Shown piece after piece: positions 2,309-62,810 of a stretch of DNA of 64,000 nucleotides (position 1 is the stretch's first letter; each line of letters opens with the position of its first letter). The DNA lies in assembly GCA_900769355.1 (NCBI GenBank), contig CAAGGG010000068.1, forward strand, positions 7,478-71,477. Reading direction: 5' to 3'. Both the position numbers and the translations under genes were made by a program. The notes beneath the pieces are model-generated. The model saw only the letters and a program-made list of their open reading frames with translations, ran no database searches and was not told where the DNA came from. This DNA is from Candidatus Gastranaerophilales bacterium. Lineage in GTDB: Bacteria; Cyanobacteriota; Vampirovibrionia; Gastranaerophilales; Gastranaerophilaceae.

Positions 2309-2385
<77 letters not shown>

Positions 2386-2614
2386 AGTAAAAAGCAATAA
2401 GGATAAGGTTTTCACCTTATCCTTATTTTTATATTTGTTTCTTAAAAAATGTGTTTTGGGTGACTTTTGGGTGACACTATGATTTCTTAGAGTTTTTGGG
2501 GAACAAAAGCTAGTATAGAAAAAATTTAGTAAGCTTAACAATACTCTTACCAATAAAAAAAATCAGAAGTAATTTTTTTGAGGTTGTCACCCATTTTTGA
2601 TTTTGGGTGACAAA

Positions 2615-3125
2615 TTATGAGAAAAGACTCGCATTAATTTTTGCAATTTTTGAATTTGCTTTCTTAAACATATGTTGATAAATTGATTGCGTTACACTAG
2701 GGTTTGCATGTCCTAAATAACCACTTATTGAAACTATATCAACTCCGTAATAGTTCAAAATACTTGCCTGTGCGTGTCTAAATGCATGTGGGTTCATTTT
2801 TGGAATTAGTGGTAATTGCTTTTCTGCAGGCAATTTTTTATTCTGTTCTACAATGATTTTGTTATATTTATCTTGGAAATCAGCGCAATAACCGGTAATA
2901 GAATCAGGGTGCAATGCATATCCACATAACGGCAATAATTTGCGCTGGAACGAAAAAGTGTATTTGACTTAAATTGTTTCTATAAGCATAATCTGCAACT
3001 ATTATTGTAGTGTTATCTGCACCTGTTCCTTGGTGAGCTTGTAATGTTACATATTTTCTTTCCAAAAAACTAATTGGTAATACCCCTACTTTATTTGAAC
3101 CAAGTATTCCCCATTGGATAATCAC
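2615..3125 (-). pseudogene. Tyrosine recombinase (phage integrase), truncated and frameshifted
   Basis: The C-terminal catalytic region HAFRHAQASILNYYGVDIVSISGYLGHANPSVTQSIYQH (R..H..R..Y box) is in ORF 2615-2935. The upstream part (2904-3125) is in another frame. Total length is about 0.5 kb against the roughly 1.1 kb expected. Confidence 0.7.
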
Positions 3126-3159
3126 ACCATTAGTAAAAAAAATACGAAAGGAGAAATAT

Positions 3160-3762
3160 ATGAATTTTTATTATGGATTAGTAGATGAGCAAAATCACGC
3201 TTATGGTTTTGTAGAAGAAACTGACAAGCGAGTAAAACCCGGCATGATATATGTTACAGAGGCCGAATGGAGTAATTTACTCAATGAACAGTCTGCCGGT
3301 AAGCAGATTGTTTTTTATGATAACAGAGTCTTTACGGCTGAGCCTGGTTTGTATTTCATTGATACAAATGGAGTATGGCAAAAAAAAGATACTGATAAAT
3401 TTCAGAAAGAAAAACGTTTACAAGAAATTGAAACAGAACTTGCAACGGCATCTTCCGAATACGAAACCTTGCTTGAAACTCCAGTTGTATATCCAGCAAA
3501 CGGCTTTACTTATAAGCCATCATACGCAAAAGATGATTATTCTGTTTTGATTGGAAATTACGATACTTTTTCAGTTGAAACAATGCCAATTGAAGATAGT
3601 ACACACCTTGCGAGCCATACTGTAAATATGACAAAAAACGAATTGCAAGCATTGGCATTATTTTTAGCACAGAAACAAGTTGAGTATCGAACTGTTTATT
3701 CAACAAAACGTGCAACTTTATTAGCAGAAAAAGAACAGTTAGAAAAAGAATTGGAGGCATAA
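3160..3762 (+). CDS. Phage protein, possibly a tail fibre assembly/chaperone-like protein
   Basis: 200-aa ORF in the prophage remnant. The call rests on weak resemblance to Tfa-type proteins and on position relative to the lysis module. Confidence 0.35.
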   Translation: MNFYYGLVDEQNHAYGFVEETDKRVKPGMIYVTEAEWSNLLNEQSAGKQIVFYDNRVFTAEPGLYFIDTNGVWQKKDTDKFQKEKRLQEIETELATASSEYETLLETPVVYPANGFTYKPSYAKDDYSVLIGNYDTFSVETMPIEDSTHLASHTVNMTKNELQALALFLAQKQVEYRTVYSTKRATLLAEKEQLEKELEA

Positions 3763-4004
3763 TGAAAAAATTAGTTTTTATTTTAGGTCTTTTACTTATT
3801 TGCAGTAAAGCTTATTGTGCTGATATTCAGCCAAAACAGCTTATTGAAATCGAAAACTCCGGTGGGATTGCTATTGTTCAAAAACAACCGAATAATGAAT
3901 GCCAAATGCAAGTCATAAAGATTAAAAAGTCCGGAGGGTTTCTGTTGGTGCAAATTAACGGAAAGATTAAGGATTCTGATGCTTCGGTATCAAACACAAA
4001 ATAG
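3762..4004 (+). CDS. Small secreted or lipoprotein-like phage-region protein
   Basis: Has an N-terminal signal peptide (MKKLVFILGLLLICSKAYC) and is translationally coupled to the upstream gene (ATGA overlap). Confidence 0.4.
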   Translation: MKKLVFILGLLLICSKAYCADIQPKQLIEIENSGGIAIVQKQPNNECQMQVIKIKKSGGFLLVQINGKIKDSDASVSNTK

Positions 4005-4042
4005 TGAAGGTTATTTATTTTATTTGAATTGGAGATTGTAAA

Positions 4043-4558
4043 ATGGGTAGATTTTTGACTGCTCCGGCTAGGACAGAGCAATTACCGCAAAAAGGAATGT
4101 ATAAACTGGTAGATAATGAATTATACGAAGATGATGACAGGTCAATATATCTTCATTGGCGAGGTTTTGAGACAGATAATTTTACTTGGATTAATTCAAG
4201 CGATTGGGATATTAGATGTAGCCATGGACACGATATTGGTAGTAAATATCATCAAATACTGAAAGTTTGCATGTCCTATGATGAACTTATCAGTAAAGGA
4301 TATTTATACCAACATAAAGAAAAGTGGGTTTGTAAAGATATTCCTACAAAATATTTAATGGTTGTTGATGTTTCAGGACACGAAATCAACAACCTTTTTT
4401 ATAGAATGCTCAAATCTGCAGATTGTCCTGTAACTCCTAAATTTATTCAATGTTTATATAGAGCTGGGGTAGCATTCAATTTGAATTGGTTTCTAACTGG
4501 TAAAACAAAAATTGAACCTTGCATGATTTATTGTGATGTTTGGAATAAGGGGGAGTAA
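4043..4558 (+). CDS. Hypothetical protein (prophage moron position)
   Basis: 171-aa ORF between the tail and lysis genes with no recognisable motif. Confidence 0.4.
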   Translation: MGRFLTAPARTEQLPQKGMYKLVDNELYEDDDRSIYLHWRGFETDNFTWINSSDWDIRCSHGHDIGSKYHQILKVCMSYDELISKGYLYQHKEKWVCKDIPTKYLMVVDVSGHEINNLFYRMLKSADCPVTPKFIQCLYRAGVAFNLNWFLTGKTKIEPCMIYCDVWNKGE

Positions 4559-4827
4559 TGGACGAGTATTTTAAATATGGACCTCTTATAATAATGCTAC
4601 TTGGTTTTCTTTGGCAATACAGAATCTTTGTTACTCCAGAACAACTTGAAAAAAAACACCGTGAAATTTTGAGAGAGTGCCGAGATGAATTTGTATCTAT
4701 TGAAGTTTTTAAGGAATTTCAATCAGAAACAAAGGAAGATTTTAAAGAGGTAAAACAGGGTATTGCTGATTTATACAGTAATACAAATGATATTAAAGAA
4801 ATTTTGATGCGAGGGGCAAACAAATGA
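4558..4827 (+). CDS. Holin-like small membrane protein
   Basis: 89 aa with a single N-terminal TM segment (GPLIIMLLGFLWQY). It sits immediately upstream of, and overlaps, the lysozyme gene. Confidence 0.45.
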   Translation: MDEYFKYGPLIIMLLGFLWQYRIFVTPEQLEKKHREILRECRDEFVSIEVFKEFQSETKEDFKEVKQGIADLYSNTNDIKEILMRGANK

Positions 4828-5447
4828 AAACTAGTAACAATGGACTTGCTATAATTAAACATTTTGAAGGTTGTAGCTTAAAAGCATATAAACCAATCCC
4901 TGCTGAAAAAGAATACACTATTGGCTGGGGACATAAATCTTCTGACATAAAATCTGGCATGGTAATATCACAAGAATTAGCTGACAATTTGCTGATTCAA
5001 GACGTTTCTGTTGCCGAAAAATGTGTTCATAAGTTTGTTATAGTCCCACTTACGCAAAATCAATTTGATGCACTTGTTAGCTTTTGCTATAACATCGGCA
5101 GTTATGCATTTAGAGCCTCAACACTTGTCGCAATGCTGAATGCAAATAAATATATTGAAGCATCAAATCAGTTTAGCCGTTGGGTTAAAGGTGATAACGG
5201 CAAAATTTTACAAGGTTTAGTCAAAAGACGAAATATGGAAAAGGAATTATTCCTTAAAGATAGTTGTAAAAAAGCTAAAGTTACGGCTACTGTCTTAAAT
5301 ATTAGGACTGGTGCCGGAACAAATTATAAAGTTGTTGGATATTTACCGAAAAATGCAATAGTGAGCCTCACAGATGCTTCAAATGGTTTTGCGAAATTAT
5401 TAGATGGAAGAGGTTGGGTTTCTCAAAAATATTTAACTTACATGTAA
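4824..5447 (+). CDS. Phage endolysin: GH24 (T4-type) lysozyme with a C-terminal SH3b cell-wall-binding domain
   Basis: Catalytic N-terminus LAIIKHFEGCSLKAYKPIPAEKEYTIGWGH plus QFDALVSFCYNIG. The C-terminal segment ATVLNIRTGAGTNYKVVGYLPKNAIV..GWVSQKYL is SH3b-like. Confidence 0.85.
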   Translation: MKTSNNGLAIIKHFEGCSLKAYKPIPAEKEYTIGWGHKSSDIKSGMVISQELADNLLIQDVSVAEKCVHKFVIVPLTQNQFDALVSFCYNIGSYAFRASTLVAMLNANKYIEASNQFSRWVKGDNGKILQGLVKRRNMEKELFLKDSCKKAKVTATVLNIRTGAGTNYKVVGYLPKNAIVSLTDASNGFAKLLDGRGWVSQKYLTYM

Positions 5448-5510
5448 TAAAAATCTTATTATAAAACTATTGTTTTCATAATAAGCTCCTTTCTTATTTC
5501 TATGAAACAC

Positions 5511-5548
5511 AAGGTGGTTGGGTTGCAAAACTCAGCCACCTTTTTTTA
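5511..5548 (+). terminator. Rho-independent terminator after the lysozyme gene
   Basis: AGGTGG..CCACCT stem followed by a T7 run. Confidence 0.6.
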
Positions 5549-5565
5549 TTTATGTTATACTAGGA

Positions 5566-5797
5566 CTAACACAGAGTAAAAGATGCTCTCCGAAACGGAA
5601 CTTACTACATTAATAATGTAAGACTTCGGGTTAGTTCCCGACTAGGAAGGGGGTCGATATGGATAAATTCAATTTAAGTTTATTTTTAATCTTTTTGATT
5701 TTATTTATATTAAAAAACGGCTCTAAATCAAATGATTAAGAACCGTTAGACTTCGTCCAGAGCATCTGGTAGCTTCGGTAACTACCACTCTGTGTTT
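5566..5797 (+). ncRNA. Candidate structured sRNA of about 230 nt, family unrecognised
   Basis: TGnTATACT extended -10 at about 5551-5559. The 5' AACACAGAGT (5571) pairs perfectly with the 3' ACTCTGTGTT (5783) and GATGCTCT pairs with AGAGCATC. There are several internal hairpins with UUCG loops, a T-run after the closing helix and no ORF. Confidence 0.35.
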
Positions 5798-5844
5798 TTA
5801 TTATAAACGATATTTTCAAAATATTCAACCTTAATAGACAAAAA

Positions 5845-6027
5845 TTATAAAGATTTATTTCGATTTCTGAAATCGGTTAAACAATTTTCAAGAAATTCTT
5901 TCTCTTCGGGAGTAACTCTTTTATAAAAGACTACGGTTTCAGGTTTAAGTTTTACCCCTTTTTTACGTCCACCATTCCTCCACCCACCACGGGTGTTTTC
6001 AGAACCTATTATATATTCTTCTGCCAT
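5845..6027 (-). CDS. Small hypothetical protein (60 aa, basic)
   Basis: ATG at 6027 with SD AAAGGA. The product starts MAEEYIIGSENTRGGWRNGGRKKG... and no family was recognised. Confidence 0.35.
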   Translation of the reverse strand: MAEEYIIGSENTRGGWRNGGRKKGVKLKPETVVFYKRVTPEEKEFLENCLTDFRNRNKSL

Positions 6028-6640
6028 AAGTAATCCTTTCAAATTTCTTAATATTGGTAAAAATAGACTTGAAAAATATAAGAAATCGTTTAAAATGTAA
6101 ATAAAGGCAAGGGGTGTCGTTACCACCCCAAGCACCATTCTAAAGAATGGATTTGATGAGATGAACTATTGCTAGTATTAGTAATAGTTCTTTTTCGTTG
6201 ATTTCAATTAGCATTTTGTCCTCCTTTCTTCGCTAACTGAATTTTTGCCTTTATTTAATTTTCAATGTTCCTTACTCTTTAATTATACACTATTTATTGT
6301 TTTAATGCAAGCATTAAAACAATAAATAGAAGGAATTTGTTACAATGCTTAATGTTTATTTGCAAGCATTTTAACATTAAGCGTTAAGTCCTAACTAACA
6401 AAATTTCATGAAAACTATCAGAAAAAAAATATTGTGTTATAATTTTTATGGATAATATAATTAACAATAAAGATGAAAAGGAATATAAAAAAATGGGTGA
6501 CTTTTGGGTGACAATTTTATAAAAAAATACTAAAAATGGCATAATTTTATAAAAAATCACAAAAGGTCAAAAAGTCCGAAATCCTTTTTTTACAAGGTTT
6601 GCAAGAAATTATGAGAAATTACAAAAAGCGAAATTGTGAA

Positions 6641-6685
6641 CTCATAACCCGAAGGTCGTTGGTTCAAATCCAGCTCCCGCAACCA
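6641..6685 (+). repeat. Partial tRNA-fMet 3' half (att site duplicate)
   Basis: Exact 45-bp copy of 2341-2385. Confidence 0.9.
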
Positions 6686-6756
6686 TTTTAAAGGGATTGA
6701 TTTAAGGACTTGTCTATGAATTTATCCCTTTTATTGTTGATTGACTTTGGATATAT

Positions 6757-9284: not shown

Positions 9285-9738
9285 TGAATATACATGAATA
9301 ATTCAACCGAAACAAACTATGCATCTATGCCTCTTGGCATCTTTGCATCTAAATCATTTTTTCGCAAGACTAATCTTGGCGGGGTAGGTACCCCGCCCTA
9401 CGTTGCTTCCTATAAAATAAGTATAGACAAATGAATAAAAACGGGTATAATAACACATGTGCACAGTAAAAAAGAAGGTGAGCTTTGTTACGAGAAATTT
9501 ATTTAGAAATGCTTTAGGGGGGGGCAAGCGTCTAGGATTTCGTTTAGTAGAGGGGGTTAATGATTTAGTAGCTAGCCGTCTAGCCGCCTTCACTCTCGCT
9601 GAAGTCTTAATTACCCTCGGCATTTCGATTATTGAAATAATATTATCAAAACGCCAAAGAGTTAATTTTACTCCTTGGCATTTTGATTTAAGTTATTTGC
9701 CGCAGGACGTACATTTTGGTTGTACGGGGGCAATGTAA
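9285..9738 (+). pseudogene. Scrambled remnant of a long-leader type IV pilin-like gene
   Basis: A leader fragment MNNSTETNYASMPLGIFASK.. ends in a stop at 9427. The G8-CAAGCGTCTAG motif is at 9516. A..AAFTLAEVLITLG (9585) then degenerates. Confidence 0.6.
9516..9523. repeat. G8 tract followed by CAAGCGTCTAGG
   Basis: Same motif as 14879-14899. Confidence 0.8.
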
Positions 9739-14691: not shown

Positions 14692-14714
14692 GTATTTCAT
14701 AATACCAGGCTTGA

Positions 14715-14750
14715 AAACGGTTTAAAAATATGTTAAAATGAACTTATAAG
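14715..14750 (+). promoter_or_regulatory. Sigma70-like promoter TTGAAA-17-TAAAAT
   Basis: Read from the sequence. It precedes a strong-SD uORF and the pilin locus. Confidence 0.5.
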
Positions 14751-14803
14751 AATAGAGAAATTAGGTCAGTCATTACCTGATAATCTGGATAAGGAGATTT
14801 TTG

Positions 14804-14899
14804 ATGAAATTTGAGAAGTCGTTGGAGTTGTTAAAAAATGAAAGCAACCTGATTGACGAGTGGAGCGGCACGCTCCTCGGGGGGGGGGCAAGCGTCTAG
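14804..14899 (+). other. 31-codon uORF (MKFEKSLELLKNESNLIDEWSGTLLGGGASV*) reading through a G10 tract and stopping at TAG immediately after it
   Basis: SD AAGGAG lies 7 nt upstream of ATG 14804. The G10 tract at 14879-14888 encodes GGG. The +1 frame (ORF track 14860 onward) is open for 136 codons into the pilin ATG at 15268. Confidence 0.45.
14879..14888. repeat. G10 homopolymeric tract followed by CAAGCGTCTAGA
   Basis: Counted directly from the sequence. Confidence 0.85.
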
Positions 14900-15267
14900 A
14901 ATCCTCGCCCCAACGGGGAGAGGAAGCAATCGTTAGCGAGCGGTTAGCGAGTGTTACGAGTGCAGGTGAGGGGAATTTAGATGTCAAGATATCCAGAGGC
15001 ATAGATGTAAAGTCTGTTACTGGAAAAATAAATTGTCACGCACCTCTCTCCGAGGGAGAGGTGGTTTCATCTATCCAATCGACCCCCTCACCCGAATTTC
15101 TAAATTCACTACCGTTCATTAAGAAATTCTACCCTACTCCCCTTTGGGGTGAGGGTAAGTTTACAAAAGTTTCTCACGACAATAGCTGCAATTCACGTCA
15201 TTCTGAGCGTCAGCGAAAGAATCCAGCTTATTTATTGTATAATACAAGTAAATTGAAAGGAATACAC

Positions 15268-16206
15268 ATGAATAATTTAACCGAAACAGCCCAGCCATCT
15301 ATGCCTCTTGGCATCTTTGCATCTAAATATGATGTCGGCATAGCAATGCCGACCTACTTTGCTGTTTACCCATCTAAATCTTCCCTGACAAGGGAAGACT
15401 TAAGTTTCGGTAAAATTGTGCATTATAATAATTTCAACTTAACAGAAACGGTCCATTCACCATTCACTACTCACAATTCACTTAAAAAATCTGCCTTCAC
15501 ATTGGCGGAGGTTCTCATCACTCTCGGCATAATTGGCGTTGTTGCGGCACTTACTTTGCCATCTGTAATAAACAAATATCGTAGTTTTGTGCTGGAACAA
15601 CAGTTTAAAAAATCCTATTCAAATCTTTCGCAGACTATTATAAATATGAAGCGTGATTCTGGTCTGGAACATTTGAGAGATAATTATGTTCATTATGACA
15701 CAAATTCCGGTTATGATTCTACATTGGTAAAAGCTTTTTATGATAGTTTTGACAGTCACATAGCACCTGTTGATAAGTTGAAAAAGATATATTCAGTTAC
15801 AAATTATAGTGGAACAGGAACATCAGCCACTGATTATGGGTACGATTGGCCACGAGCTCTTTTTGTTTTAGCCGATGGAAGTAGTATTGGACGTCTTGTT
15901 AATAACGGTTGTTTGCTTTTTTGGATTGATACAAATGGGCCTTACAAAAAACCTAATCGTTATGGCTTTGATATTTTTGAACTTAGAGTTTGTGACAGTA
16001 CAGATGCTTTAAAGCCTGTTAAGGCATATAAAAACAATTATACCGATGAGGAGTTGGAAAAAGAACAGTTTCCGTATATTGTAGGTGCTCCTTGCACAAA
16101 AAATTCCAAACAACTGCTAAACGGCATAGGTTGTTCTTGGTATGCGTTGAACAATATTAATCCAGATGATGAGTCGAAAAAATACTGGGATAGTTTACCT
16201 TGGTAA
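15268..16206 (+). CDS. Type IV pilin-like protein (prepilin-type N-terminal cleavage/methylation domain) with an unusually long, roughly 75-aa leader
   Basis: Starts MNNLTETAQPSMPLGIFASK, continues to KKSA|FTLAEVLITLGIIGVVAALTLPS (Glu+5), and has the C-terminal motif IDTNGPYKKPNRYGFDIF. SD AAAGGAA; TGTATAAT extended -10 at about 15229. Confidence 0.75.
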   Translation: MNNLTETAQPSMPLGIFASKYDVGIAMPTYFAVYPSKSSLTREDLSFGKIVHYNNFNLTETVHSPFTTHNSLKKSAFTLAEVLITLGIIGVVAALTLPSVINKYRSFVLEQQFKKSYSNLSQTIINMKRDSGLEHLRDNYVHYDTNSGYDSTLVKAFYDSFDSHIAPVDKLKKIYSVTNYSGTGTSATDYGYDWPRALFVLADGSSIGRLVNNGCLLFWIDTNGPYKKPNRYGFDIFELRVCDSTDALKPVKAYKNNYTDEELEKEQFPYIVGAPCTKNSKQLLNGIGCSWYALNNINPDDESKKYWDSLPW

Positions 16207-16281
16207 ACTCTTAAATAGCCCTTGACTCTCCGGTTTGTTGCGTGTATTTTGGTTATACGAGAGATTTTGGGGAGATAATAT

Positions 16282-17661
16282 ATGGAAGAAAACAATGTTT
16301 TAAAGAAGTTTACAACAGCTCAGTTTTTGAACTTTGCGCTAGGTTTTTTTGGATTACAGTTTGCTTGGCAGATGAGAATTATTTTGTCAGGACCGGTTAC
16401 GGAAGGGCTTGGAGCTTCTCCGTTTATTTACGGGCTAATTTGGCTTGCGGGGCCATTTACAGGAATGGTTGTTCAGCCGCTTGTTGGTGCATTGAGTGAC
16501 AAAACTGTTTCTCCGCTTGGCAGACGTCGTCCTTATTTGTTAGGTGGTGCTTTGTTGGCGTCTTTGGCGTTGTTAATTTTTCCTAATTCCGGTGGAATTG
16601 CTGATGGTTTGGCAAGTTTGACAGGTTTGCATTTGCCGACTGTTACAGGTTTATTGATTGCTGCAATTATGATTTGGGTAATTGATGCGTGTGTAAACGT
16701 TGCACAAGGTCCTTATAGAGCGTTAATTCCTGATGTAGTGCCGGAAGAACAATATTCAATCGCAAATTCTTATATAAGTCTTGCAATCGGCTTAGGTTCT
16801 GTTGTTGCGGCTGGTACAGCTCCGTTTTTGAAATGGGCTTTTGGGTATCAAATGTCAATCCCTGCACAGTTTGTAATGGCTGCTTTGGCGTTTACACTTG
16901 GTATGATTTGGACTTGCATTACTATAAAAGAGTGCAAAAGAGAGCACGAAAATAAACAAGAAGCTGCTCAGAATAATGTTTCTTTCTGGCAGTCTTTGAA
17001 AGAGTTTTTTGCGTTGTCGCCTGAGGTTTCAAAAATATGTACAATGCAGTTCTTCACTTGGATTGGGACAATGTGTATGATGATTTTCTTTACACAGTAT
17101 GCGGTTCATACAATCTATTGTGTGCCTGATTTGACAACTGTTTCTGAGTCTACAAAAGAACTTTATGCACAAGCAACTTTGACTGGAACTAATTTTTCAT
17201 CAATTTGTTTTGCAATATTTAATTTGATTTGTTTTATCGTTGCAATTCCAATCGGATTTTTGTCGGCGAAGTTTTCAAATAAAAAAGTTCATATTATTTC
17301 AATAATAACAATGATTTTGGCTTATTTGGGAATGTTTTTCGCAAAAGATCCAAAAGCCGTTGCAGCTTTGATGGGCTTGTCAGGTATTGGCTGGGCAAGT
17401 ATTTGTGCATTGCCGTTTGCGATGCTTTCTCAATTTATTAAAAAAGGTACGGAAGGTTCTGTAATGGGAATTTTCAATATCTTTATCGCAGGTCCGCAAG
17501 TGTTTGTTTGCACACTTGTTGCATGGATTATTTCAAAATGCTCATTCACAATGGGATCTGACTACATTAACTACCACTGGGAATATGCATTTGTAATCGG
17601 TGCGGTTTGCCTTGCAATTGCGGCTGTAATCGCTTCTATGGTTAAGGAAAAGGTTCAATAA
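16282..17661 (+). CDS. MFS/GPH-family transporter (sucrose/glycoside symporter-like, 12 TM)
   Basis: LGRRRPYLLGG motif after TM2, 12 predicted hydrophobic segments, 459 aa. Confidence 0.7.
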   Translation: MEENNVLKKFTTAQFLNFALGFFGLQFAWQMRIILSGPVTEGLGASPFIYGLIWLAGPFTGMVVQPLVGALSDKTVSPLGRRRPYLLGGALLASLALLIFPNSGGIADGLASLTGLHLPTVTGLLIAAIMIWVIDACVNVAQGPYRALIPDVVPEEQYSIANSYISLAIGLGSVVAAGTAPFLKWAFGYQMSIPAQFVMAALAFTLGMIWTCITIKECKREHENKQEAAQNNVSFWQSLKEFFALSPEVSKICTMQFFTWIGTMCMMIFFTQYAVHTIYCVPDLTTVSESTKELYAQATLTGTNFSSICFAIFNLICFIVAIPIGFLSAKFSNKKVHIISIITMILAYLGMFFAKDPKAVAALMGLSGIGWASICALPFAMLSQFIKKGTEGSVMGIFNIFIAGPQVFVCTLVAWIISKCSFTMGSDYINYHWEYAFVIGAVCLAIAAVIASMVKEKVQ

Positions 17662-19061
17662 TGACTGAAAAAAAACGAATTCTTTTAATATATCCGCCAT
17701 CGCCTGTTATGAATAGAGAGGACAGGTGTCAGCAACCGACAAAGGATTTGATTGTAATTCCGCCTTTGCCACCGACTGACTTGATGTATCTGGCATCTGT
17801 TGCTGAGCAGGTTGGGTTTGAGGTAAAAATCGAAGATTACAGTCAGGGTGGCGATTTGGAATATGATTTACGAGAATTCAGACCTGATTATTTGGTTGTA
17901 AATATTGCAACTCCGACGCTTGAAAACGATTTAGATGCCGTAAAACGAGCAAAAGAGCTTAATCCGCACATCGTGACAATCGCAAAAGGTGCGGCGTTCT
18001 TGACTCTTGGAGAAAAAATCCTGAAAGAACATGATTTTCTCGATTTTGGAATTCTTGGCGAAGCAGAAGATACTTTGAAGGAAATCCTTGAAGGACGTGA
18101 AAAATCAGAAATTCTCGGAATTTATTATTGTGAAAACGGAGAGGTGAAATTTACTGGAAAACGTCCGTTTATTGAAGATTTGGACAGACTTCCATTCCCT
18201 GCTCGTCATCTTGTGGATAACAATATTTATAGACGCCCTGACAACAACAAAGTTCAGGCGACAATTAAGGTTGAGCGCGGTTGCCCGTTCCATTGCTTCT
18301 TCTGCCTTGCAACACCTGTTTCAGGAGCGAAAGTCAGACGCAGAAGTGCAGAAAATATTGTTGCAGAAATTAAAGAATGTGTAGAAAAATATAACATTCG
18401 GAATTTCTTGTTCTGGTCAGATATCTTCAATCTTGATAAAGAGTGGACGATGAACTTGTGCCAAGCAATAATTGAAAGTGGGCTAAAAATTACTTGGTCT
18501 GCAAACACCAGAGCCGACACAGCTGACTTGGAGATGGCAAAATTGATGTACAAATCTGGTTGCCGTCTTGTAAGTATCGGTGTTGAGAGCGGTTCACAAG
18601 AAATGCTTGAAAAAATGGGTAAAAACATTACGCTTGACGATGTTAGGAATACGGTTAAAATCTTTAAGCAAGCAAAGATCAGAATTTACAATTACTTTGT
18701 AATCGGGTTGCCTTGGGAAACAGAAGAGACGGTTGAGGAAACAATTAAATTCGCAATTGAGTTAGATAGCGATTTTATAAGTTTTTATACTGCGACTCCG
18801 CTTCCAGGGTCAAGATTTTATGATTATGCCAAAGAGCATAATTTATTTGATAACGAAACATCTTTTGAAAGTGCATATTTTTATCCGTCAGTAAATACGC
18901 ATTACTTGTCAAAAGACAGAGTTTTTGAATTGCACAAGTCTGCAATAAAGAGGTTTTATTTAAGGCCAAGATATGTTTTGAGAATGCTTAGCCGAATAAG
19001 ATCTTTTGAAGAGGTTAAAAACTACTTCATTGCGGGAATGAATGTATTGTTAAGAAGATAG
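17661..19061 (+). CDS. B12-binding-domain radical SAM enzyme
   Basis: N-terminal B12-binding Rossmann-like region (ILLIYPPSP...). Radical SAM cluster motif GCPFHCFFC. 466 aa. The start overlaps the stop of the MFS gene. Confidence 0.8.
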   Translation: MTEKKRILLIYPPSPVMNREDRCQQPTKDLIVIPPLPPTDLMYLASVAEQVGFEVKIEDYSQGGDLEYDLREFRPDYLVVNIATPTLENDLDAVKRAKELNPHIVTIAKGAAFLTLGEKILKEHDFLDFGILGEAEDTLKEILEGREKSEILGIYYCENGEVKFTGKRPFIEDLDRLPFPARHLVDNNIYRRPDNNKVQATIKVERGCPFHCFFCLATPVSGAKVRRRSAENIVAEIKECVEKYNIRNFLFWSDIFNLDKEWTMNLCQAIIESGLKITWSANTRADTADLEMAKLMYKSGCRLVSIGVESGSQEMLEKMGKNITLDDVRNTVKIFKQAKIRIYNYFVIGLPWETEETVEETIKFAIELDSDFISFYTATPLPGSRFYDYAKEHNLFDNETSFESAYFYPSVNTHYLSKDRVFELHKSAIKRFYLRPRYVLRMLSRIRSFEEVKNYFIAGMNVLLRR

Positions 19062-19083
19062 AAGATGATTTGGAGGATATAAA

Positions 19084-19692
19084 ATGAAAAACGCGTTTAC
19101 ATTGGCAGAAATTCTTATAACAATGGGGATTATTGGCGTTGTTTCGGCAATGACAGTCCCTGCATTAAATCAGAGTTGGCAAAGAGATGCTTATACAACA
19201 CAATTGAGAAAGGTTTATTCTGAAGTTGCTCAGGCAGCAGTTCGTTTAAAAACTGATAAAAACGTTCAATCTTTGGCAGAAGCGAGAATAACTTCAAATA
19301 ATATTAGAGAAGAATTTATACACAAATATTTTGTAGTGTTAAGAGATTGTCCATTAATTACTGGTTGTTTTCCAAATTCATATAAGACGGTAGGCGGTAC
19401 TACAGTAACAACTGATTCAACATCATTTGATACTTGTAGTAGTTCTGTAATTGCAAGTGGTGCTGCATTATGTTATCGAGTTGTTGGCGACCGAATTCGT
19501 ATTATTGTTGATGTTAATGGTACTAAAGATCCTAATATTTTTGGACGTGATGTATTCGCAATGGAGGTTTTACCAAATGGAAAAGTTCAAGATTCTGATA
19601 ATGGATCAGTATTTAATCCAAATGCAACCAGTATTAGGAAGGTTTATGCGTTGGGACGAATAATAAATGATGGTTGGAAGATGACATATTAA
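19084..19692 (+). CDS. Type IV pilin-like protein (short leader)
   Basis: Starts MKNA|FTLAEILITMGIIGVVSAMTVPAL. Motif VDVNGTKDPNIFGRDVF; C-terminal DGWKMTY shared with 50657. Confidence 0.8.
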   Translation: MKNAFTLAEILITMGIIGVVSAMTVPALNQSWQRDAYTTQLRKVYSEVAQAAVRLKTDKNVQSLAEARITSNNIREEFIHKYFVVLRDCPLITGCFPNSYKTVGGTTVTTDSTSFDTCSSSVIASGAALCYRVVGDRIRIIVDVNGTKDPNIFGRDVFAMEVLPNGKVQDSDNGSVFNPNATSIRKVYALGRIINDGWKMTY

Positions 19693-19786
19693 TAAAGTTT
19701 TTACAAAGTATAAAATTTTTATGACTAAAAAAGCTCTCGAATACTCGGGAGCTTTTTGGTGATTATGATTATGATTTAGAGAGTTT

Positions 19787-20419
19787 TTAATTTAGAATAA
19801 ATCCACCTTTATCAGCGTTTTGAAGATTTTCACCTTCTATTTTGGCTCTAAGGTTTTTAATATATTTGTAAACATAATCTCTTGGCAAATCAAGTAATGC
19901 TGCTAAGTCTTTTGCATAAACAATTTTACCTTTGTTTTGTTCAAAATAGTTGAATACACGTTGTTCTCTGTCAGTAAGTGCTTTTTTGAAAACAACTTTA
20001 ACTTCTTCTCTAAGGTTTTCTGCTTTAACAGCCTGTTTTTCTTCATTTTTAGCAACTTTTTTGGCAGAAACTTTAGCTTCTTTTACCTTAGCTTTTTCTG
20101 CTTTTGCTTTTTTTGTTTCTTCGGCTTTTACATCTTCATCAATTTTAATTTTATGAATAGAGAAAGGAGTTGGAGCTATTTCTTGTTCTCTTTCATAAGC
20201 TCTTTCAGCTATAGCACTCAATCTTTCAGCGTGATTTTGTTTCCATTCTGGTTCATTAGAAACAACAGGTTTTCCCTTTAGCACTATATCAATTAAATCG
20301 TTTGTAGGCTTAGCCTCTTCTATCTTTTTCCCTAATCTGGCAGCGAATTCTTCTAATGTAATCTTTTCCAATGAGCTTCTCCATTGTTTAATCTCTTCCT
20401 TGCTCAAGTATTCAGACAT
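19787..20419 (-). CDS. Putative DNA-binding protein with a C-terminal HTH and a KA-rich linker
   Basis: C-terminal LTDREQRVFNYFEQNKGKIVYAKDLAALLDLPRDYVYKYIKNLRAKI is sigma-R4/LuxR-like. A central Lys/Ala/Glu low-complexity segment is present. Confidence 0.5.
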   Translation of the reverse strand: MSEYLSKEEIKQWRSSLEKITLEEFAARLGKKIEEAKPTNDLIDIVLKGKPVVSNEPEWKQNHAERLSAIAERAYEREQEIAPTPFSIHKIKIDEDVKAEETKKAKAEKAKVKEAKVSAKKVAKNEEKQAVKAENLREEVKVVFKKALTDREQRVFNYFEQNKGKIVYAKDLAALLDLPRDYVYKYIKNLRAKIEGENLQNADKGGFILN

Positions 20420-20545
20420 TCACTAATCTCCTATAACTATGTGTCTCTTTCTATTCTTCTAATGTAGCATAAACCATGCTCCATGATTCAAAATGTTTCA
20501 CAACGTAAATTTTTGTTTTTTATTGTAACGTTTTTGTTTTACGAA

Positions 20546-20669
20546 GTCGTTATTCTGAAAGCTTAGAAAAATATTCTAAGCGATTAGCGAAGAATAATTT
20601 TTCTTGCTATTCAGAATCTCTTGCGAAATAGAATAGACTCCGGATCGGAGTCCGGAGTGACAGTTACGG
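20546..20669. repeat. Palindromic repeat unit of the ATTCTGAA...TTCAGAAT + ACTCCGGATCGGAGTCCGGAGTGAC family
   Basis: A second copy lies at 21409-21512, with the shared tail tagactccggatcg(g/t)agtccggagtgac(a/t)gttacg. Confidence 0.7.
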
Positions 20670-20703
20670 TTAGTTGTTTTGCGAAAATTGCAATTATTTT
20701 ATT

Positions 20704-20960
20704 CGTCATTCTTGTATGTGTTAAGTAATTCGTTGACAAAAATTTTAATCAACTACCCACTCTCATTCTCTCCCTAATTGAGGGAGAGAAGCTATACCTT
20801 GCAACTATCTCTGTTTATAATCCTGTATAGCAGCAATTTATGAATTTCAATTTATACAAAACATAAGTCTTCCCTCGGTTAGGGAAGATTTAGATGGGTA
20901 AACAATATTACGAGATAGTCTATTTTGTCAACGAATTACTTAACACATACAAGAATGACG
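20704..20960. mobile_element. 257-bp non-coding MITE-like element with 38-bp perfect terminal inverted repeats
   Basis: Left TIR 20704-20741 (cgtcattcttgtatgtgttaagtaattcgttgacaaaa) is the exact reverse complement of 20923-20960. It contains an internal hairpin repeat (cccactctc..ctctccctaattgagggagagaagct) that is also at 34325-34400. Confidence 0.7.
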
Positions 20961-21408: not shown

Positions 21409-21512
21409 GTCATTCTGAAAAGACTGAAAATCAAGCGTGTAGCGTCGATTTTCGTCTTATTCAGAATCTACTATTAATAGACTCCGGATCGTAGTCCGGA
21501 GTGACTGTTACG
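21409..21512. repeat. Second copy of the palindromic repeat unit (see 20546-20669)
   Basis: gtcattctgaaaagac...gtcttattcagaatc hairpin followed by the actccggatcgtagtccggagtgactgttacg tail. Confidence 0.7.
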
Positions 21513-24197: not shown

Positions 24198-24270
24198 TCG
24201 ACCCCTCTCCCGAATTCGTAATGTTCACTAGCGTTCGCAAACGACTTCGACCTCTTCCCTTGGAGAGGTG
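24198..24270. repeat. Roughly 72-bp GC-rich hairpin repeat (cccctctcccgaattcgtaatg..cttcccttggagaggtg), copy 1
   Basis: Near-identical copy at 24746-24816, a diverged copy at 24890-24958, and inverted partial copies at 24320-24350 and 24860-24888. Confidence 0.75.
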
Positions 24271-24361
24271 TGTTTAACAAGCTATTCTCGCCTAGGGAGA
24301 GAAAGTAGCCGTTTGAGCGGAGCGAATTACGGATACAAGAGAGGGGTTAATAGGTTTTGGG

Positions 24362-24703
24362 TTAAATCATCAACCTTCTTATATATTCTAAAACTCCTTC
24401 TAAATTATTAATATTATCGTTAGTAATTCTTACAACTTTATATCCTTTACTTGCAAGATATTCATCGCGTTCTTTGTCATAATTGCTGTTTTCAAAATGC
24501 TGAGAACCATCTAATTCAATAATCAACTTATTATCTGTACATAAAAAATCTACTATATAATTTTCAATAGGTACTTGTCTTTTGAATTTAAATCCCAAAA
24601 ATCGTTTTGCTCTTAAATTTTGCCATAGTAATAGTTCAAAGTCAGTCATGTTTTGTCTTAAATCTTTGGCATAATTTAGGATTTTTTTGTTTTGCTTTTT
24701 CAT
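24362..24703 (-). CDS. DUF559 / Vsr-like endonuclease-domain protein
   Basis: 113 aa. Motifs LWQ.LR...GFKFKRQ, IVDF.C....LIIELDG..H and YLASKGYKVVRI are typical of DUF559. Confidence 0.65.
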   Translation of the reverse strand: MKKQNKKILNYAKDLRQNMTDFELLLWQNLRAKRFLGFKFKRQVPIENYIVDFLCTDNKLIIELDGSQHFENSNYDKERDEYLASKGYKVVRITNDNINNLEGVLEYIRRLMI

Positions 24704-24745
24704 TGGCTGAATTATAGCATGAAATTGTTTTGTTGTTAATTAGCT

Positions 24746-24816
24746 AACCCCTCTCCCGAATTCGTAATGCTCACTAGCGTTCGCAAACGACTTCGACCTC
24801 TTCCCTTGGAGAGGTA
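24746..24816. repeat. Copy 2 of the roughly 72-bp hairpin repeat flanking DUF559
   Basis: See 24198-24270. Confidence 0.75.
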
Positions 24817-25042
24817 AATTTGTCTAAAATAGTAGCAATGCAAAGGTTCTCTCTCCTAGGGAGAGAGCTAGAGAGAGGGGGGAATTCATTCGACCCCTCT
24901 CCCGCAGTCATAATGATTACAGCAGTTCGCGAAGAACTTCGACCTTTCGAGAGGTGTGTTTTTATATAAAACAAATAGAGACTCAGTGAAAACCGAGTCT
25001 CTATTACATGTTTTTGAATTAGCTTGACTAATTCTATACTTT

Positions 25043-25678
25043 CTATTTGCCGTACAATACAGCTCTTGCTGCTGGAGAGTTAGGTAAAATTGTTTGGTCA
25101 TAGAATTTAACAGGATAAATATCTGTTGGGCTAGACACTTTACATGAATCGCCAGATGTGCTAGAGTCGCAAGCAACGATTTTGTTAGGACCTTTTTGTC
25201 CGTTTACGTCAATGAAACCTTTACAAATGTGTCTAGTTGCACCAGAGTTATCCGGGTCGTCAGTACAAGCAGCTGAAGAATTAGGGAATGTAAATGTAAC
25301 ACCATCATTAAAGAATAATGCAGTGTTTGCTTCATCTTTTGTAGGAGCTCCTGTTCCTGACATTGTGTATGCTGTATCAGCGTTACCAAGAGCAGCTCTA
25401 ACTACGTTCATTCTTGCATTTAAGATGTTTGCAACAGAGTTTGCTGTTGTTGTTGCCCCAGCAGTACCTGCTACTGAGTCTGCAAAGCTAGCGCCGTCAA
25501 GTGCTACGTTCAATGTTACACCTTGAGAAATTGCTGATAAAGCTTTTTTGTAGGCTGCTTTATATTGAGCACCTTGAGTTGAGTTCATCAATGTAGGCAT
25601 TGTCATTGCAGCTACAACACCGATGATACCTAATGTAATCAACACTTCTGCAAGTGTGAAACCGAATCTTTTTGTCAT
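25043..25678 (-). CDS. Type IV pilin-like protein (short leader MTKRFG|FTLAEVLITLG)
   Basis: N-terminal class III signal with Glu+5. Motif IDVNGQKGPNKIV. Confidence 0.8.
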   Translation of the reverse strand: MTKRFGFTLAEVLITLGIIGVVAAMTMPTLMNSTQGAQYKAAYKKALSAISQGVTLNVALDGASFADSVAGTAGATTTANSVANILNARMNVVRAALGNADTAYTMSGTGAPTKDEANTALFFNDGVTFTFPNSSAACTDDPDNSGATRHICKGFIDVNGQKGPNKIVACDSSTSGDSCKVSSPTDIYPVKFYDQTILPNSPAARAVLYGK

Positions 25679-34324: not shown

Positions 34325-34400
34325 TTACCCACTCTCTTTCTCTCCCTAATTGAGGGAGAGAAGCTTTGCCTTGCAACTGGTCCCGTTTATAATTCTGTAA
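34325..34400. repeat. Copy of the hairpin repeat shared with the interior of the 20704-20960 element
   Basis: Sequence ttacccactctctttctctccctaattgagggagagaagctttgccttgcaactggtcccgtttataat, compared with 20754-20830. Confidence 0.7.
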
Positions 34401-50656: not shown

Positions 50657-51471
50657 TTACCAAGGATACGTAATTTTCCAGCCATCTTGCATGATTTTTG
50701 CAGCGCAAGCTGTCCCAGAAGAATTACAATTTGAATTTATTTCTGCTGTGGTATTTGAGTATAAATCGGCTCTTACAATGCCGTCTTTAAAGTCAATCCA
50801 AAATCTAAAAAGGTCTTTTCCAAAAACATTTGGAGATTTTATACCATTGATATCAACTACAACTTCTTGTTTGGGGTTAAACATTGGCGTCCAGTGTTCT
50901 CCCCACTTTGTGAGTAAGATAAAATAAGTAACGCCGTCAGGAGTTGAAAAAAAAATTCTTCCGGCTGAATAGTTTGTGTAAATTGAAGTGTCATACGTTC
51001 TTCCGTTTTTATATTTGTATGCTATATTGCTTCCTTGCCAAGGACCACTTGGTGAAGTGTCGACATTTGCGCCATTAAAATATGGTAGCCAGTAAGTGTC
51101 AAAAAATTCTTTAACCGACTTTTGGGTGGCAACTGTTTCTTCAGTAAAATTGACTACGTCGTTGTCTGCAAGTGATTTTTGCGCGATTTGTCCGAGAGCA
51201 GAATACGCTTTTTTGAGCTTGGTTACAGTGACTTGTTTTTGGTAATTCTGGATAATAGTTGGAATAGTCAATGCTGCAACAGCGCCTATGATCCCGAGGG
51301 TGATTAGAACTTCAGCCAATGTAAAAGCGGCTCGATGCAGCTTGTCACAGAGGGCTACGTGCGTAGCACCGCTTCCTAGCTTCCTAGCTGCTTCTACAAC
51401 AGACTTTGCCTCATTTTGTTGTTTTAATGAGCTCTCGGGGGGGGGGCAATCATGGAACTATTATTAATCAT
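50657..51471 (-). CDS. Type IV pilin-like gene with a C10 tract in codons 9-12. It is out of frame as sequenced (putative phase-variable, OFF).
   Basis: Promoter TTGACA-17-AATAAT (plus 51508-51536), SD GAGGAG, then ATG at 51471. The product is MINNSSMIAPPPRAH* with 10 C. With 11 C it would be in frame with ...ESSLKQQNEAKSVVEAARKLGSGATHVALCDKLHRA|AFTLAEVLITLG.. and the rest of the pilin domain (VDINGIKSPNVFGKDLF, C-terminal DGWKITY). There is no canonical internal start. Confidence 0.6.
51437..51446. repeat. G10 (C10 on the coding strand) homopolymeric tract followed by CAATC
   Basis: Counted from the sequence. Same ctc-Gn-caatc context as 2107-2115. Confidence 0.85.
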
Positions 51472-51538
51472 TCTTTTTAACTCCTCTTATTCTTAACGTA
51501 TAAATTTATTATTTACGATATTTTGTGATTTGTCAACT

Positions 51539-56374: not shown

Positions 56375-57973
56375 ATGGGAATATTTGACAGGGTTAAAAG
56401 AGCCTACACTCTTGCAGAAATTATTATAGTATTGGTTGTAATTGCAGTTGTTGTTGCTGTGACTATGCGTGTTGCAAAAACAAAATTGGATAATATAACG
56501 ACATATACCTATTATTCTGCGTATGGTGTTTTGAATGACGTGACTGCACAAATGGTAGCCGGATATGACCCGCAACAAGATAGGTATATGGAAGTAGCAA
56601 ATGCTTCGTTAGATACTCTAAGTCGTTTTCAGTCAAGTTATAATGAGTTGTTTGTATTTGGCTCAAAGATTTCAAATTATCATAATTTAAAACAAATACA
56701 AAAAGTATTAAGTTCAGAAGTCTATGCAATAGGTGGAAATCACTGGTTCGAATTTTCTCCGGTAGAGCCTTATGGCGGAGAATGTACTATTGATGTTGAT
56801 GATTTTAATGTAAAGTACGTAAAAGCGAAATACCAAGTGATAAACAGTGAAGGTGATTACGACTGGTCTTGTCTTGGGGTGCTAGAAGCTGCAAACCGTT
56901 TCGGTCCGCCTGAAAGAGTAAAAAATCCGGATACAGGTGAGACGGGGTGGTATTGTAGAACCGCAGTAGATACTTCCAGAAAAGTTAGAATTCCATCGAG
57001 AGATGAACAATATCAAGAATATTGTCAAAATCAAAGAATGTACGAAGCTGAGCCTTTGTGTGGATATCGTACATATGATTTGTGTAAAAATACGAGTGGT
57101 TTAACATGGTCTAAAACGAAGTGTAAATGTGTAAATTCTGATGAGGAACAACCATGTACTCAGGTAAGTGAGGAACAACAAAGAAGGGATTATTGCCACT
57201 TCGGTAAAACGAATTATGATCCAAACACTTGTACTTATCTTACCGAAGGTACAGATTGTGAAAAAGGACAACATTGGAGCACAAGCGAACCTTGCGGTTG
57301 TGTGCCGGATAATGCAACTGTTCCTAGAAAAGGAGCCAATTTCTGTGAAATGTTTGTTTCATTTGTGAATACAAAAACTGGTGAGTCGCTATGTAGTGGC
57401 GGAGCAGTTGCTGCTGATGTTACTGATTTTTCTTCGATTACTCCGGATATTGTTCTTAGAAATGGAATGAGAGTCTTTAATGCTTCCCAAAATCCTGCTA
57501 ACATTAGCGAGTTTACGCTTGCTGATGGAGAACATAAAAATAGCTTTTTTACAAAAGATGATGGTACAAGAATTTATCTTGATGAATTTGGTTATACATT
57601 ATATATAGATATTGATGGTGCTAGAAACGGTAACTCAAAGTTGTGGGAAGATGTATTCCCATTCTATGTAACTCTTTCCGGCAAAGTAATTCCGGCCTAC
57701 AACACAGATGCAATAGCTCAATTTGGAGGTGGTAGCAGGTATTATCTTCAAACGAGTATTCAAGTTGATTCTGTAGATGCACAAGGTGCAACACAATTTT
57801 GGCTGGACGGAGCAAAAAGTATATCGTTTAGACAAGCAGCTTGTATGTCAGGTTATGTTGATGCTGCGGCTCAATATTGTTCGAGAAATCCGTCGATTGC
57901 AAAATCTGCGACTTGTAGTGAGGGAAATAATTCTTGCTCAATAAAAAAGGTAAGCCCGATTAGATGGTTCTAG
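56375..57973 (+). CDS. Large (532 aa) Cys-rich type IV pilin-like protein (possible minor pilin/adhesin)
   Basis: Leader MGIFDRVKRA|YTLAEIIIVLVVIAVVVAVTM (Glu+5). About 27 Cys in CxC/CxxC-rich modules. Late motif YIDIDGARNGNSKLWEDVF. Confidence 0.7.
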   Translation: MGIFDRVKRAYTLAEIIIVLVVIAVVVAVTMRVAKTKLDNITTYTYYSAYGVLNDVTAQMVAGYDPQQDRYMEVANASLDTLSRFQSSYNELFVFGSKISNYHNLKQIQKVLSSEVYAIGGNHWFEFSPVEPYGGECTIDVDDFNVKYVKAKYQVINSEGDYDWSCLGVLEAANRFGPPERVKNPDTGETGWYCRTAVDTSRKVRIPSRDEQYQEYCQNQRMYEAEPLCGYRTYDLCKNTSGLTWSKTKCKCVNSDEEQPCTQVSEEQQRRDYCHFGKTNYDPNTCTYLTEGTDCEKGQHWSTSEPCGCVPDNATVPRKGANFCEMFVSFVNTKTGESLCSGGAVAADVTDFSSITPDIVLRNGMRVFNASQNPANISEFTLADGEHKNSFFTKDDGTRIYLDEFGYTLYIDIDGARNGNSKLWEDVFPFYVTLSGKVIPAYNTDAIAQFGGGSRYYLQTSIQVDSVDAQGATQFWLDGAKSISFRQAACMSGYVDAAAQYCSRNPSIAKSATCSEGNNSCSIKKVSPIRWF

Positions 57974-62804: not shown

Positions 62805-62810
62805 GAAATT

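Follow-up and report, generated by a model that had tools for sequence, protein, structure and literature searches.

Homopolymer contingency genes are exemplified by pilC of Neisseria, with a poly-G tract in the region coding for its signal peptide, and by the poly-G genes of Campylobacter jejuni, and the opa genes of Neisseria carry CTCTT repeats in the region coding for the leader peptide. Here we examine a block of roughly 150 bp that is shared by two pilin-like genes, A and B, in a stretch of 64,000 nucleotides (hereafter the window) from a Candidatus Gastranaerophilales bacterium (assembly GCA_900769355.1, contig CAAGGG010000068.1, positions 7,478 to 71,477 of the forward strand). We consider it probable that this block is a set of dispersed repeat modules translated within the long, removable leader of tract-gated, phase-variable pilin-like genes. 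As in pilC and the C. jejuni genes, a G or C run of 8-11 nt just past the start codon would set the frame of a surface-structure gene, in many paralogues that each have a switch of their own; unlike in those genes, 20-200 translated repeat codons separate the tract from the functional protein, the tract sits in a shared CTC-Gn-CAATC module, and runs of ten G predominate. The likeness to opa lies in a variable repeat within the removed part of the open reading frame (ORF) and in a multigene family with independent ON/OFF states, whereas the tract here is a homopolymer and not a pentamer, the signal is of class III and not of the Sec type, and the leader is far longer and built of dispersed repeats.

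The repeats within the leader have relatives of a different kind. Repetitive extragenic palindromic (REP) elements and the bacterial interspersed mosaic elements (BIMEs) of proteobacteria are built on a short, G+C-rich hairpin with a conserved GTAG head. The hairpins described here have the same head (a CTAC tail on the strand read) with seven pairing stem variants, form mosaics with other motifs and also occur between genes, as in a further REP-type example within an intergenic repeat cluster at locus L067, but unlike REP and BIME many of the copies lie inside ORFs. In Neisseria, pilE has a G-quadruplex motif, made of four G runs, upstream. With the pilE/pilS gene-conversion system (PMC3960869) the present loci have in common a pilin family, conserved 5' sequence, variable bodies and signs of recombinant alleles between strains. 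[quoted passage not shown]

Class III signal peptides consist of a hydrophilic leader of 6-26 aa with a near-invariant Gly at its end (PMC4471445). The leaders described here are likewise hydrophilic and lead into F-T-L-A-E (Glu at +5) and then into a hydrophobic helix some 21 residues long, but they are 36-231 aa long and end in Ala, and the short Gly-ending form is not found in these genes. A homopolymer switch in a leader-coding region is of a standard kind, and repeats read in frame are known behaviour; what is new to the literature searched is the combination, in Melainabacteria, of repeat-built, Ala-ending class III leaders of 36-231 residues behind their own G10/G11 switches. The same literature contained nothing relevant on pilins, phase variation or homopolymeric tracts in Melainabacteria or Gastranaerophilales, nor on DUF6613.

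The shared block and the leaders of the pilin-like genes

The blocks at loci A (15214-15357, plus strand) and B (61846-61993, plus strand) have a mean column identity of 91% across 174 alignment columns, rising to 93% across the 114 nt that align without gaps (15214-15327 against 61846-61959), and the 25-nt hairpin segment TGTCGGCATAGCAATGCCGACCTAC shows no difference between them. The 23-mer CTCTTGGCATCTTTGCATCTAAA has three exact copies in the window (0.00 expected) and the 19-mer CGAAAGAATCCAGCTTATT has four (0.07 expected), which bears out the near-identical 5' block reported in the preliminary description of this DNA. All of the parts named there were found at both loci, namely the repeat arm CGAAAGAATCCAGCTTATT, the element TTGTATAAT (15235-15243 in A, 61867-61875 in B), the ribosome-binding site GAAAGGAA (15255-15262 and 61887-61894), the ATG with which the MNNLTET reading begins (15268 and 61900), and the leader palindrome, an inverted repeat of 8 bp that encloses a loop of 4 nt (15334-15353 and 61970-61989). 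Its extent for A, 15196-15345, captured the block and stopped slightly short of the end, which lies at 15357. Within the cassettes, TTGTATAAT overlaps an extended -10 element, TGTATAAT (15236-15243 in A, 61868-61875 in B); the core reaches to 15327 in A and to 61959 in B, and the hairpin is followed by CTAC (15354-15357 and 61990-61993). A 4-nt indel between core and hairpin shifts the frame of the latter, which is read as DVGIAMPTY in A and as CRHSNADL in B. We would read the block as one MITE-like arm, a piece that supplies promoter, ribosome-binding site and ATG, then some 60 nt of core, and a REP-like 8-bp hairpin with its CTAC. The downstream regions are less alike than the block, as had been described: the mature proteins are 46% identical, and the 89 nt coding for the N-terminal helix are 76% identical, below the value of the leader block. 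The flanks on either side of the block are unrelated or much more diverged.

Proteins of the A and B type match N_methyl (PF07963) and TIGR02532, with Glu at +5 and a hydrophobic helix (FTLAEVLITLGIIGVVAALTLP); this prepilin motif is the only domain found on them, and many of their public homologues are assigned to PF20318 (DUF6613). At locus A the pilin-frame ORF spans 14860-16206 on the plus strand. It includes an upstream mosaic leader open in the pilin frame (14889-15213), with a hairpin at 15041-15063, a SPEFLNSLPFIKKFYPTPLWGEG repeat and GTCATTCTGAG; then the block; then the rest of the leader (15358-15495), with a second hairpin (15379-15398), a repeat of part of the core start (NNFNLTET) and, ahead of the cleavage motif, ...KKSA; and finally the mature pilin-like protein of 236 aa (15496-16206), which begins with FTLAEVLITLGIIGVVAALTLP. 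The SPEFLNSLPFIKKFYPTPLWGEG peptide is the translation of a diverged relative of D3, one of several further G+C-rich hairpin repeat families (D3, D6, D12) present at 24201-24961, 20632-20830, 21476-21512 and 34326-34399 of the window. Gene B, counted from the cassette ATG, spans 61900-62727 on the plus strand and encodes a 36-aa leader and a mature part of 239 aa that starts at 62008. The end of the block lies 36-140 nt from the cleavage motif A↓FTLAEV, and because the block is upstream of that motif it does not form part of the mature, antigen-exposed protein.

Leaders of this kind are also found in homologues of these proteins. Their length is 36 aa in B, 76 or 231 aa in A and up to about 197 aa in homologues, and almost all of the listed homologues in which the motif can be recognised have Ala as residue -1. 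Among the 120 listed of 593 public homologues in total, the leaders are patchworks of the same modules, with peptides such as LGIFASK and SPEFLNSLPFIKK; the peptide modules of the upstream leader of A recur in many public homologues, and the module order of A 15358-15495 is identical in P0081 and P0118. The 275-aa product of B is called identically in many public assemblies (the P0004 cluster), and gene-caller starts across the family are inconsistent, falling on the cassette ATG, on an in-frame GTG or TTG, or within the mature protein. For 26 pilin-like genes, the median length of the stop-free run upstream is 78 codons when read in the pilin frame, compared with 3.5 and 7.5 codons for the two remaining frames. 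The hairpin module is read in all three frames, and the copies in the third frame have TGG instead of TAG (L005 and L023, peptide LSDWQIRPT).

Three more pilin-like genes of the window (19084-19692; 25043-25678, minus strand; and 56375-57973) have short leaders (MKNA↓F..., MTKRFG↓F...) and no tract, so that the long-leader, tract-gated architecture is a trait of a sub-family. A Pfam scan of the 31 window proteins found no gene for a prepilin peptidase or for the assembly machinery.

Homopolymer tracts, upstream starts and internal starts

Followed in the 5' direction, the pilin frame stays open past a G or C run and consistently closes some 20-30 nt upstream of it. Directly 5' of this tract stands an ATG with a strong ribosome-binding site, from which 8-25 codons (consensus M-R/K-K-F-x-F-R-R-A-F) are read, and the CTC-Gn-CAATC module in which the tract sits is independent of orientation. 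Among 36 genes, the tract measured 10 nt in 24, 9 nt in six, 8 nt in two, 11 nt in two, and 6 and 7 nt in one each, and in 17 of the G10 genes exactly one more base would be needed to reach the frame of the ATG with the ribosome-binding site; a metagenome scan for tract plus module yielded 8 loci only, too few alone for a length distribution. These genes thus carry the feature by which homopolymer-tract genes are recognized, a tract of at least 7 nt in the 5' coding region that sets the frame of the start.

At locus A, a promoter-like site (14711-14739, plus strand; TTGAAA, a 17-nt spacer and TAAAAT, with TG, 10/12 matches) precedes the upstream start (14791-14806), which consists of the ribosome-binding site AAGGAG (14791-14796) and ATG 14804-14806, and TTGAAA...TG-TTATAAT sites are likewise found 5' of the orthologous starts in L052-L055. 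The poly-G tract of A (G10, 14879-14888) is one base short of joining ATG 14804 to the pilin frame and is predicted to be OFF, the frame of that ATG stopping at TAG 14897-14899. In silico, G11 gives a single ORF of 467 aa to 16206 and G8 one of 466 aa, with a 231-aa leader. A fourth tract-gated pilin-like gene, on the minus strand (50657-51490), has AAGAGGAG, an ATG at 51471-51469, a C10 tract at 51446-51437 (predicted OFF), a 49-aa leader and the F codon at 51325; C11 would here give an ORF of 271 aa. A search for the neighbours of this gene by way of RibF met no record of that protein. Neither this gene nor L026 has an in-frame start between the tract and FTLAEV. At locus B the upstream start has decayed (61741-61773, plus strand), the ancestral ATG now being CTG (61762-61764) and a TTA now the stop TAA (61771-61773), and its G10 tract (61792-61801) is uncoupled from any start.

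Tract length also varies in nature. The flanks of L052, which has G11 and a 300-aa gene, are identical to those of L053, which has G10, and the same holds for L054 (G11) and L055 (G10); the G11 alleles, which read ...AFGGGGN..., were found via a protein search with an in-frame leader. At the P0066 locus, ten samples are identical across 400 nt save for the tract (G10 in nine of the ten, G9 in the other), and in-frame G11 and G8 forms of the P0066 gene occur in other samples. Locus B in ten other assemblies with identical flanking proteins has G6, G7, the interrupted run GGTGGGGG, G9 or G10, and at locus A the tract of strain L033 is G9, the flank being altered such that the -1 relation is again the same. 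In-frame and out-of-frame states are therefore both present between otherwise identical sequences. As G8, G9, G10 and G11 alleles differ by the tract alone between samples, the tract is, as judged from the assemblies, the signature of a slipped-strand contingency locus. The idea of a length ceiling of 10, whether as a data artefact or as proof of programmed slippage, was rejected when G11 alleles were found.

We would accordingly order the elements of such a gene as promoter, ribosome-binding site and ATG, 8-25 codons, a G/C tract usually of 10 nt, 20-200 mosaic codons and the motif K-K/R-x-A↓FTLAEV, with the tract acting as a slipped-strand phase switch and the long leader presumably cut off by prepilin peptidase.

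An unlikely alternative is that the frame change is programmed at the RNA level, by polymerase stutter on G10/C10 or a ribosomal -1 slip on G GGG GGG, so that G10 would be the expressed state. The slippery heptamer G GGG GGG is indeed present in the zero frame, that of the ATG, and a zero-frame stop follows within 3-5 codons; two-thirds of the tracts (24/36) are exactly 10 nt long, 17 of these needing one more nucleotide, which is equivalent to a -1 shift; the G9 of L033 with its changed flank again calls for the same -1 relation; and nine of the ten P0066 samples have G10. However, the same genes have natural alleles with G11 and G8 (and G7) that are in frame, G9 alleles in the other phase exist, and a sub-family with Gn-TAGTACG is in frame at the tract itself, with G7 or G10. 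Across 31 copies, moreover, no conserved stimulatory structure was found at the usual spacing of 5-9 nt past the tract, some copies having a variable 6-bp stem 2 nt after it.

A tract of the same module also lies outside the pilin-like genes. At 2107-2115 of the window, a G9 run (C9 on the minus strand) in the CTC-Gn-CAATC module stands about 45 nt upstream of ATG 2062 on the minus strand, from which a large, non-pilin protein of more than 687 aa runs off the window. With its position in a promoter or 5' untranslated region, this tract might switch phase at the level of transcription.

Downstream of the tract, the block itself provides a further start at loci A and B. TGTATAAT, GAAAGGAA and the ATG are kept in A, in B and in the B alleles of other strains, and the A/B cassette has a perfect extended -10, TGTATAAT; in a few other species a ribosome-binding site and ATG are present with an imperfect -10. 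B has no other in-frame start between the hairpin and AFTLAEV, and the decay of its upstream start (ATG to CTG, TTA to TAA) is seen in most strains, the L043 allele keeping ATGAAAAAATTAGAT... with ATG, G7 and the long leader in frame, in a 390-aa gene with a pilin body identical to that of B. Because the upstream start of B has decayed while its cassette start has been kept, we infer that the A/B cassette gives tract-independent expression and bypasses the switch; A would then keep both routes, the upstream tract-gated start and the cassette start.

It could be argued from this that the real starts are internal throughout, the tract irrelevant and the open frames a by-product of stop-poor, G+C-richer repeats. 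Good internal ribosome-binding sites with ATG occur in about 30% of cassette copies, gene callers begin many homologues at the cassette ATG or at other internal starts, and B clearly works without its upstream start. We regard this generalization as quite improbable, as the two remaining frames of the same repeats close after 3.5 and 7.5 codons, TGG replaces TAG in the third-frame hairpins, many genes have no in-frame start past the tract, and a ribosome-binding site with ATG stands directly 5' of nearly every tract. The MNNLTET ATG is itself unconserved, other genomes showing ATT, an out-of-frame ATG or nothing in its place.

Dispersed modules, the third copy and putative recombinant alleles

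To the reading as translated repeat modules, the distribution of the modules is central. The 20-nt core, scanned against one genome per species, has 35 exact copies in 32 loci, all of them in five Gastranaerophilales/Melainabacteria metagenome-assembled genomes (MAGs) with many copies per genome, and the three in the window bring the total to 38. Of these 38 copies, 18 are in open pilin leaders, every one in frame with the prepilin motif K-K/R-x-A↓FTLAEVLITLGIIGVVAA. Compared side by side, the copies share a vocabulary of modules (the core, the hairpins with CTAC, the CTTAGCTGCTTCGCTTCCTAGCTGCCTAGCTGC module, the GTCATTCTGAG...CGAAAGAATCCAGCTTATT arm and others), the order of which varies between copies and which occur in both orientations. 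The hairpin has at least seven stem variants, all of which pair and all of which are followed by CTAC on the strand read. Viral contigs have no core copy and one hairpin copy only, in an intergenic repeat cluster.

Many of the hairpin and core copies are intragenic and some are intergenic, as at L067 and at 57975-58168 of the window. The latter region comprises a complete palindromic MITE-like element (58072-58168), the arm of which is the CGAAAGAATCCAGCTTATT / GTCATTCTGAG piece of cassettes A and B, with CGAAAGAATCCAGCTTATT as an inverted pair at 58072-58090 (minus) and 58150-58168 (plus), and a degenerate string of the same vocabulary on the minus strand (57975-58060), which contains a core with three mismatches (57987-58009) and lies just past the stop of the pilin-like gene at 56375-57973.

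Two further features of the modules were noted. The core has an internal periodicity of 8 nt (window 15290-15327: GCATCTAT GCCTCTTG GCATCTTT GCATCTAA), as has the CTTAGCTGC... module (e.g., L013 at about 95-135: GCTTAGCT GCTTCGCT TCCTAGCT GCCTAGCT), and this periodicity recalls the short tandem repeats of cyanobacteria. A module reading GATHVAHCDK(Y/F)RR(V/A)A, with the inner palindrome GCTACGCACGTAGC and AFTLAE on both sides, is found in L025, L028, L034, P0021, P0105 and P0112, and has the look of an insertion into the prepilin motif that has duplicated its target.

Modules that bear the core also stand in frame within genes of other kinds. One is a ketoacyl synthase of an aryl-polyene-like cluster (L010 6062-7999, plus strand; L032 3403-5472, minus strand). 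In L010 a 138-aa repeat insert separates the ketoacyl-synt N domain, whose last residue is 191, from the C domain, whose first is 330, and in L032 the corresponding residues are 196 and 301, with a 104-aa insert of the same modules; more modules in L032 form a linker that fuses the synthase in frame to an ApeP-type dehydratase. In an ABC permease (L003, L014) the modules are at the N-terminus and in an MMPL protein (L020) at the C-terminus. Most likely, they are concentrated in pilin leaders because the protein can do without the part ahead of the cleavage motif, so that insertions are filtered only for frame: because the leader would be removed by prepilin peptidase, insertions that keep the frame could be tolerated there.

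The third, degenerate copy of the block, C (9294-9401), shares its core with A and B and confirms the earlier report of such a copy, with a palindrome of its own, near 9285-9427. It lies in a stand-alone ORF of 46 codons on the plus strand (9294-9434) with ATG at 9294, the core extending to 9353 and a stop at 9434; its hairpin (9378-9397, GGCGGGGTA-gg-TACCCCGCC) is followed by CTAC (9398-9401), and the hairpin arms are wholly unlike those of A and B yet still pair, with the CTAC tail kept. On the 3' side of C lies a truncated pilin-like pseudogene (9440-9738, plus strand) with GGGTATAAT, an ATG at 9457, ACG at 9490-9492 where homologues carry the canonical ATG, a G8 tract at 9517-9524 and a AAFTLAEVLITLGI remnant (AFTLAEV) at 9582-9623, after which the sequence is unrelated up to the end of the ORF at 9738. 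Its start module is also kept in L002, L013, L021, L025, L028 and L029. The G8 tract is in frame, but the pilin is truncated, with the conserved helix reduced to 14 codons. C is positioned upstream of the promoter, ATG and G8 start of this pseudogene, a similar order being partly seen in one other species (L025). The view of C as a silent, shuffled pilin remnant holds insofar as it is a degenerate copy beside a G tract and a decayed FTLAEV segment; as a silent donor of variable 3' sequence it fails, for it consists of leader modules only.

Comparison of strains, which had been proposed as a means of finding chimeric alleles, did reveal the same 5' block joined to different partners (L049, L043, L033). 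The alleles of locus B diverge right after the tract, which is followed by CAACTTCG, AACTTCG, CTTCG, TAAGCAGC, TACGTGC, CTCCCAAG or TAGTACGAGG, and differ in their leader strings or have a truncated gene, or else no gene is called there at all. On the 67.8-kb contig L049, the left flank, leader and cassette of B are followed by a different pilin body and right flank; in L043 the body of B stands behind a long, different leader string; and in L033 the promoter, ATG and tract of locus A are joined to other modules and another pilin. Because strains differ in leader modules and pilin bodies at loci A and B, the shared modules probably also serve as recombination joints, and as homology patches they could re-pair leaders, switches and pilin bodies between paralogues or strains. 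An A-type leader joined to the cassette, body and right flank of B (L056, P0166) is kept only as a possible recombinant, being on a 2.9-kb contig with 4x coverage that begins at a repeat boundary.

Several kilobases of the locus-A neighbourhood differ between strains with an identical PGI protein (window 14692-20600 against L033 3947-6446), the window having pilin A, an MFS transporter, a B12-radical SAM enzyme and another pilin, and L033 having a single different pilin and then other genes. Directly 3' of gene B is a 6S (SsrS) RNA gene (window 62809-62988, plus strand; Rfam score 47.8 bits against a gathering score of 46.4), which is kept in strains that have lost most of gene B.

The recombinant alleles might suggest antigenic variation of the pilE/pilS type, as had been proposed at first, in which silent partial copies feed an expressed pilin and the 5' block and its palindrome are recombination signals. 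The conserved block is indeed multi-copy, strain alleles link it to different pilin bodies, and it is closer between paralogues than the constrained helix region. We nonetheless consider such a system very improbable, given that the block is upstream of the cleavage motif and outside the mature pilin; that the 64-kb window has no promoterless copies with variable 3' segments that could serve as silent donors; that each paralogue is complete with its own promoter, ribosome-binding site, ATG and tract; that the modules are not specific to pilins, fewer than half of the core copies (18/38) being in open leaders and modules occurring in non-pilin genes as well; and that only single G8-G10 runs are present, with no G-quadruplex motif of four runs. 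As far as can be read from these alleles, the mechanism of variation shown by the data is change in the length of the homopolymer tract.

An equally poor candidate is a cis-regulatory RNA leader (an attenuator, a riboswitch or a processing signal) in which the reading frame is incidental. It would account for conservation at the nucleotide level, for the compensatory changes that keep the hairpin stem in at least seven variants, and for the different frames of the hairpin in A and B. Against it, no match to Rfam 15 was found over the cassettes in a scan of the whole window (best E = 0.52 in 14700-15600), folding of the three cassettes formed only local hairpins with z-scores of -0.6 to -2.1 relative to shuffled sequence, the hairpin is not followed by a U-tract, the modules are found in either orientation and within unrelated coding sequences, and the openness of the pilin frame is statistically strong (78 against 3.5 and 7.5 codons). 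The structured-RNA idea was dropped, the fold being barely better than shuffled and belonging to no Rfam family. The suggestion that the leader palindrome is a signal stands to the extent that it is an element conserved in structure, with pairing stems and a kept CTAC; the accompanying suggestion to predict the RNA structure of the leader led to local hairpins only.

That A and B go back to a recent duplication, tandem or segmental, of the 5' end of a gene is scarcely credible despite their identity of 91-93%, as five other species and hundreds of public proteins contain the same modules and the flanks to either side are unrelated or much less similar; simple duplication, which the preliminary description would have accepted had there been no further copies in the genome and no chimeric alleles among isolates, is contradicted by the 35 core copies at 32 loci in five MAGs.

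Weight of the evidence and wider meaning

Several points weigh against the reading of the block as repeat modules in the leaders of phase-variable genes. The ON and OFF states are taken from consensus assemblies, some of low coverage (about 4x for L052), and the dominance of G10, almost always exactly one base short, also fits -1 slippage by RNA polymerase or the ribosome. Some of the chimeric alleles are possibly assembly joins through the repeat (L056, and even L049). The internal promoter of the cassette has no -35 element and was missed by a consensus scan. The conservation of the core across species, at about 90%, goes beyond what tolerance alone would leave and implies mobility, gene conversion or a function at the nucleotide level. 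Finally, the predicted cleavage concerns Ala-ending leaders of 36-231 aa, outside the norm of 6-26 aa ending in Gly (PMC4471445).

More tentatively, we put forward as quite possible that these genes form a previously undescribed 'phasome' of Gastranaerophilales: dozens of prepilin-like genes, each with its own G10/G11 switch, with class III signal peptides extended by repeats to 36-230 residues, and with the in-frame repeats of housekeeping genes as a second case of the RPE type, in the sister lineage of Cyanobacteria, the repeats perhaps re-pairing switches, promoters and bodies. If so, the Melainabacteria of human and animal guts, which are uncultured, would vary their surface filaments stochastically, like mucosal pathogens facing antibodies and phages, and the in-frame repeats in the ketoacyl synthase and transporters would offer a second natural system besides Rickettsia for the tolerance of selfish repeats in proteins. 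Awareness of the tract would also correct hundreds of public start annotations.

Elsewhere in the window, a prophage remnant (2309-6692) lies at a tRNA-Met gene (2309-2385), bounded by 52-nt att-like direct repeats (2341-2392 and 6641-6692) that are 94% identical, and contains an integrase fragment (2615-2935, minus strand) and a phage lysozyme with an SH3 domain (4824-5447).

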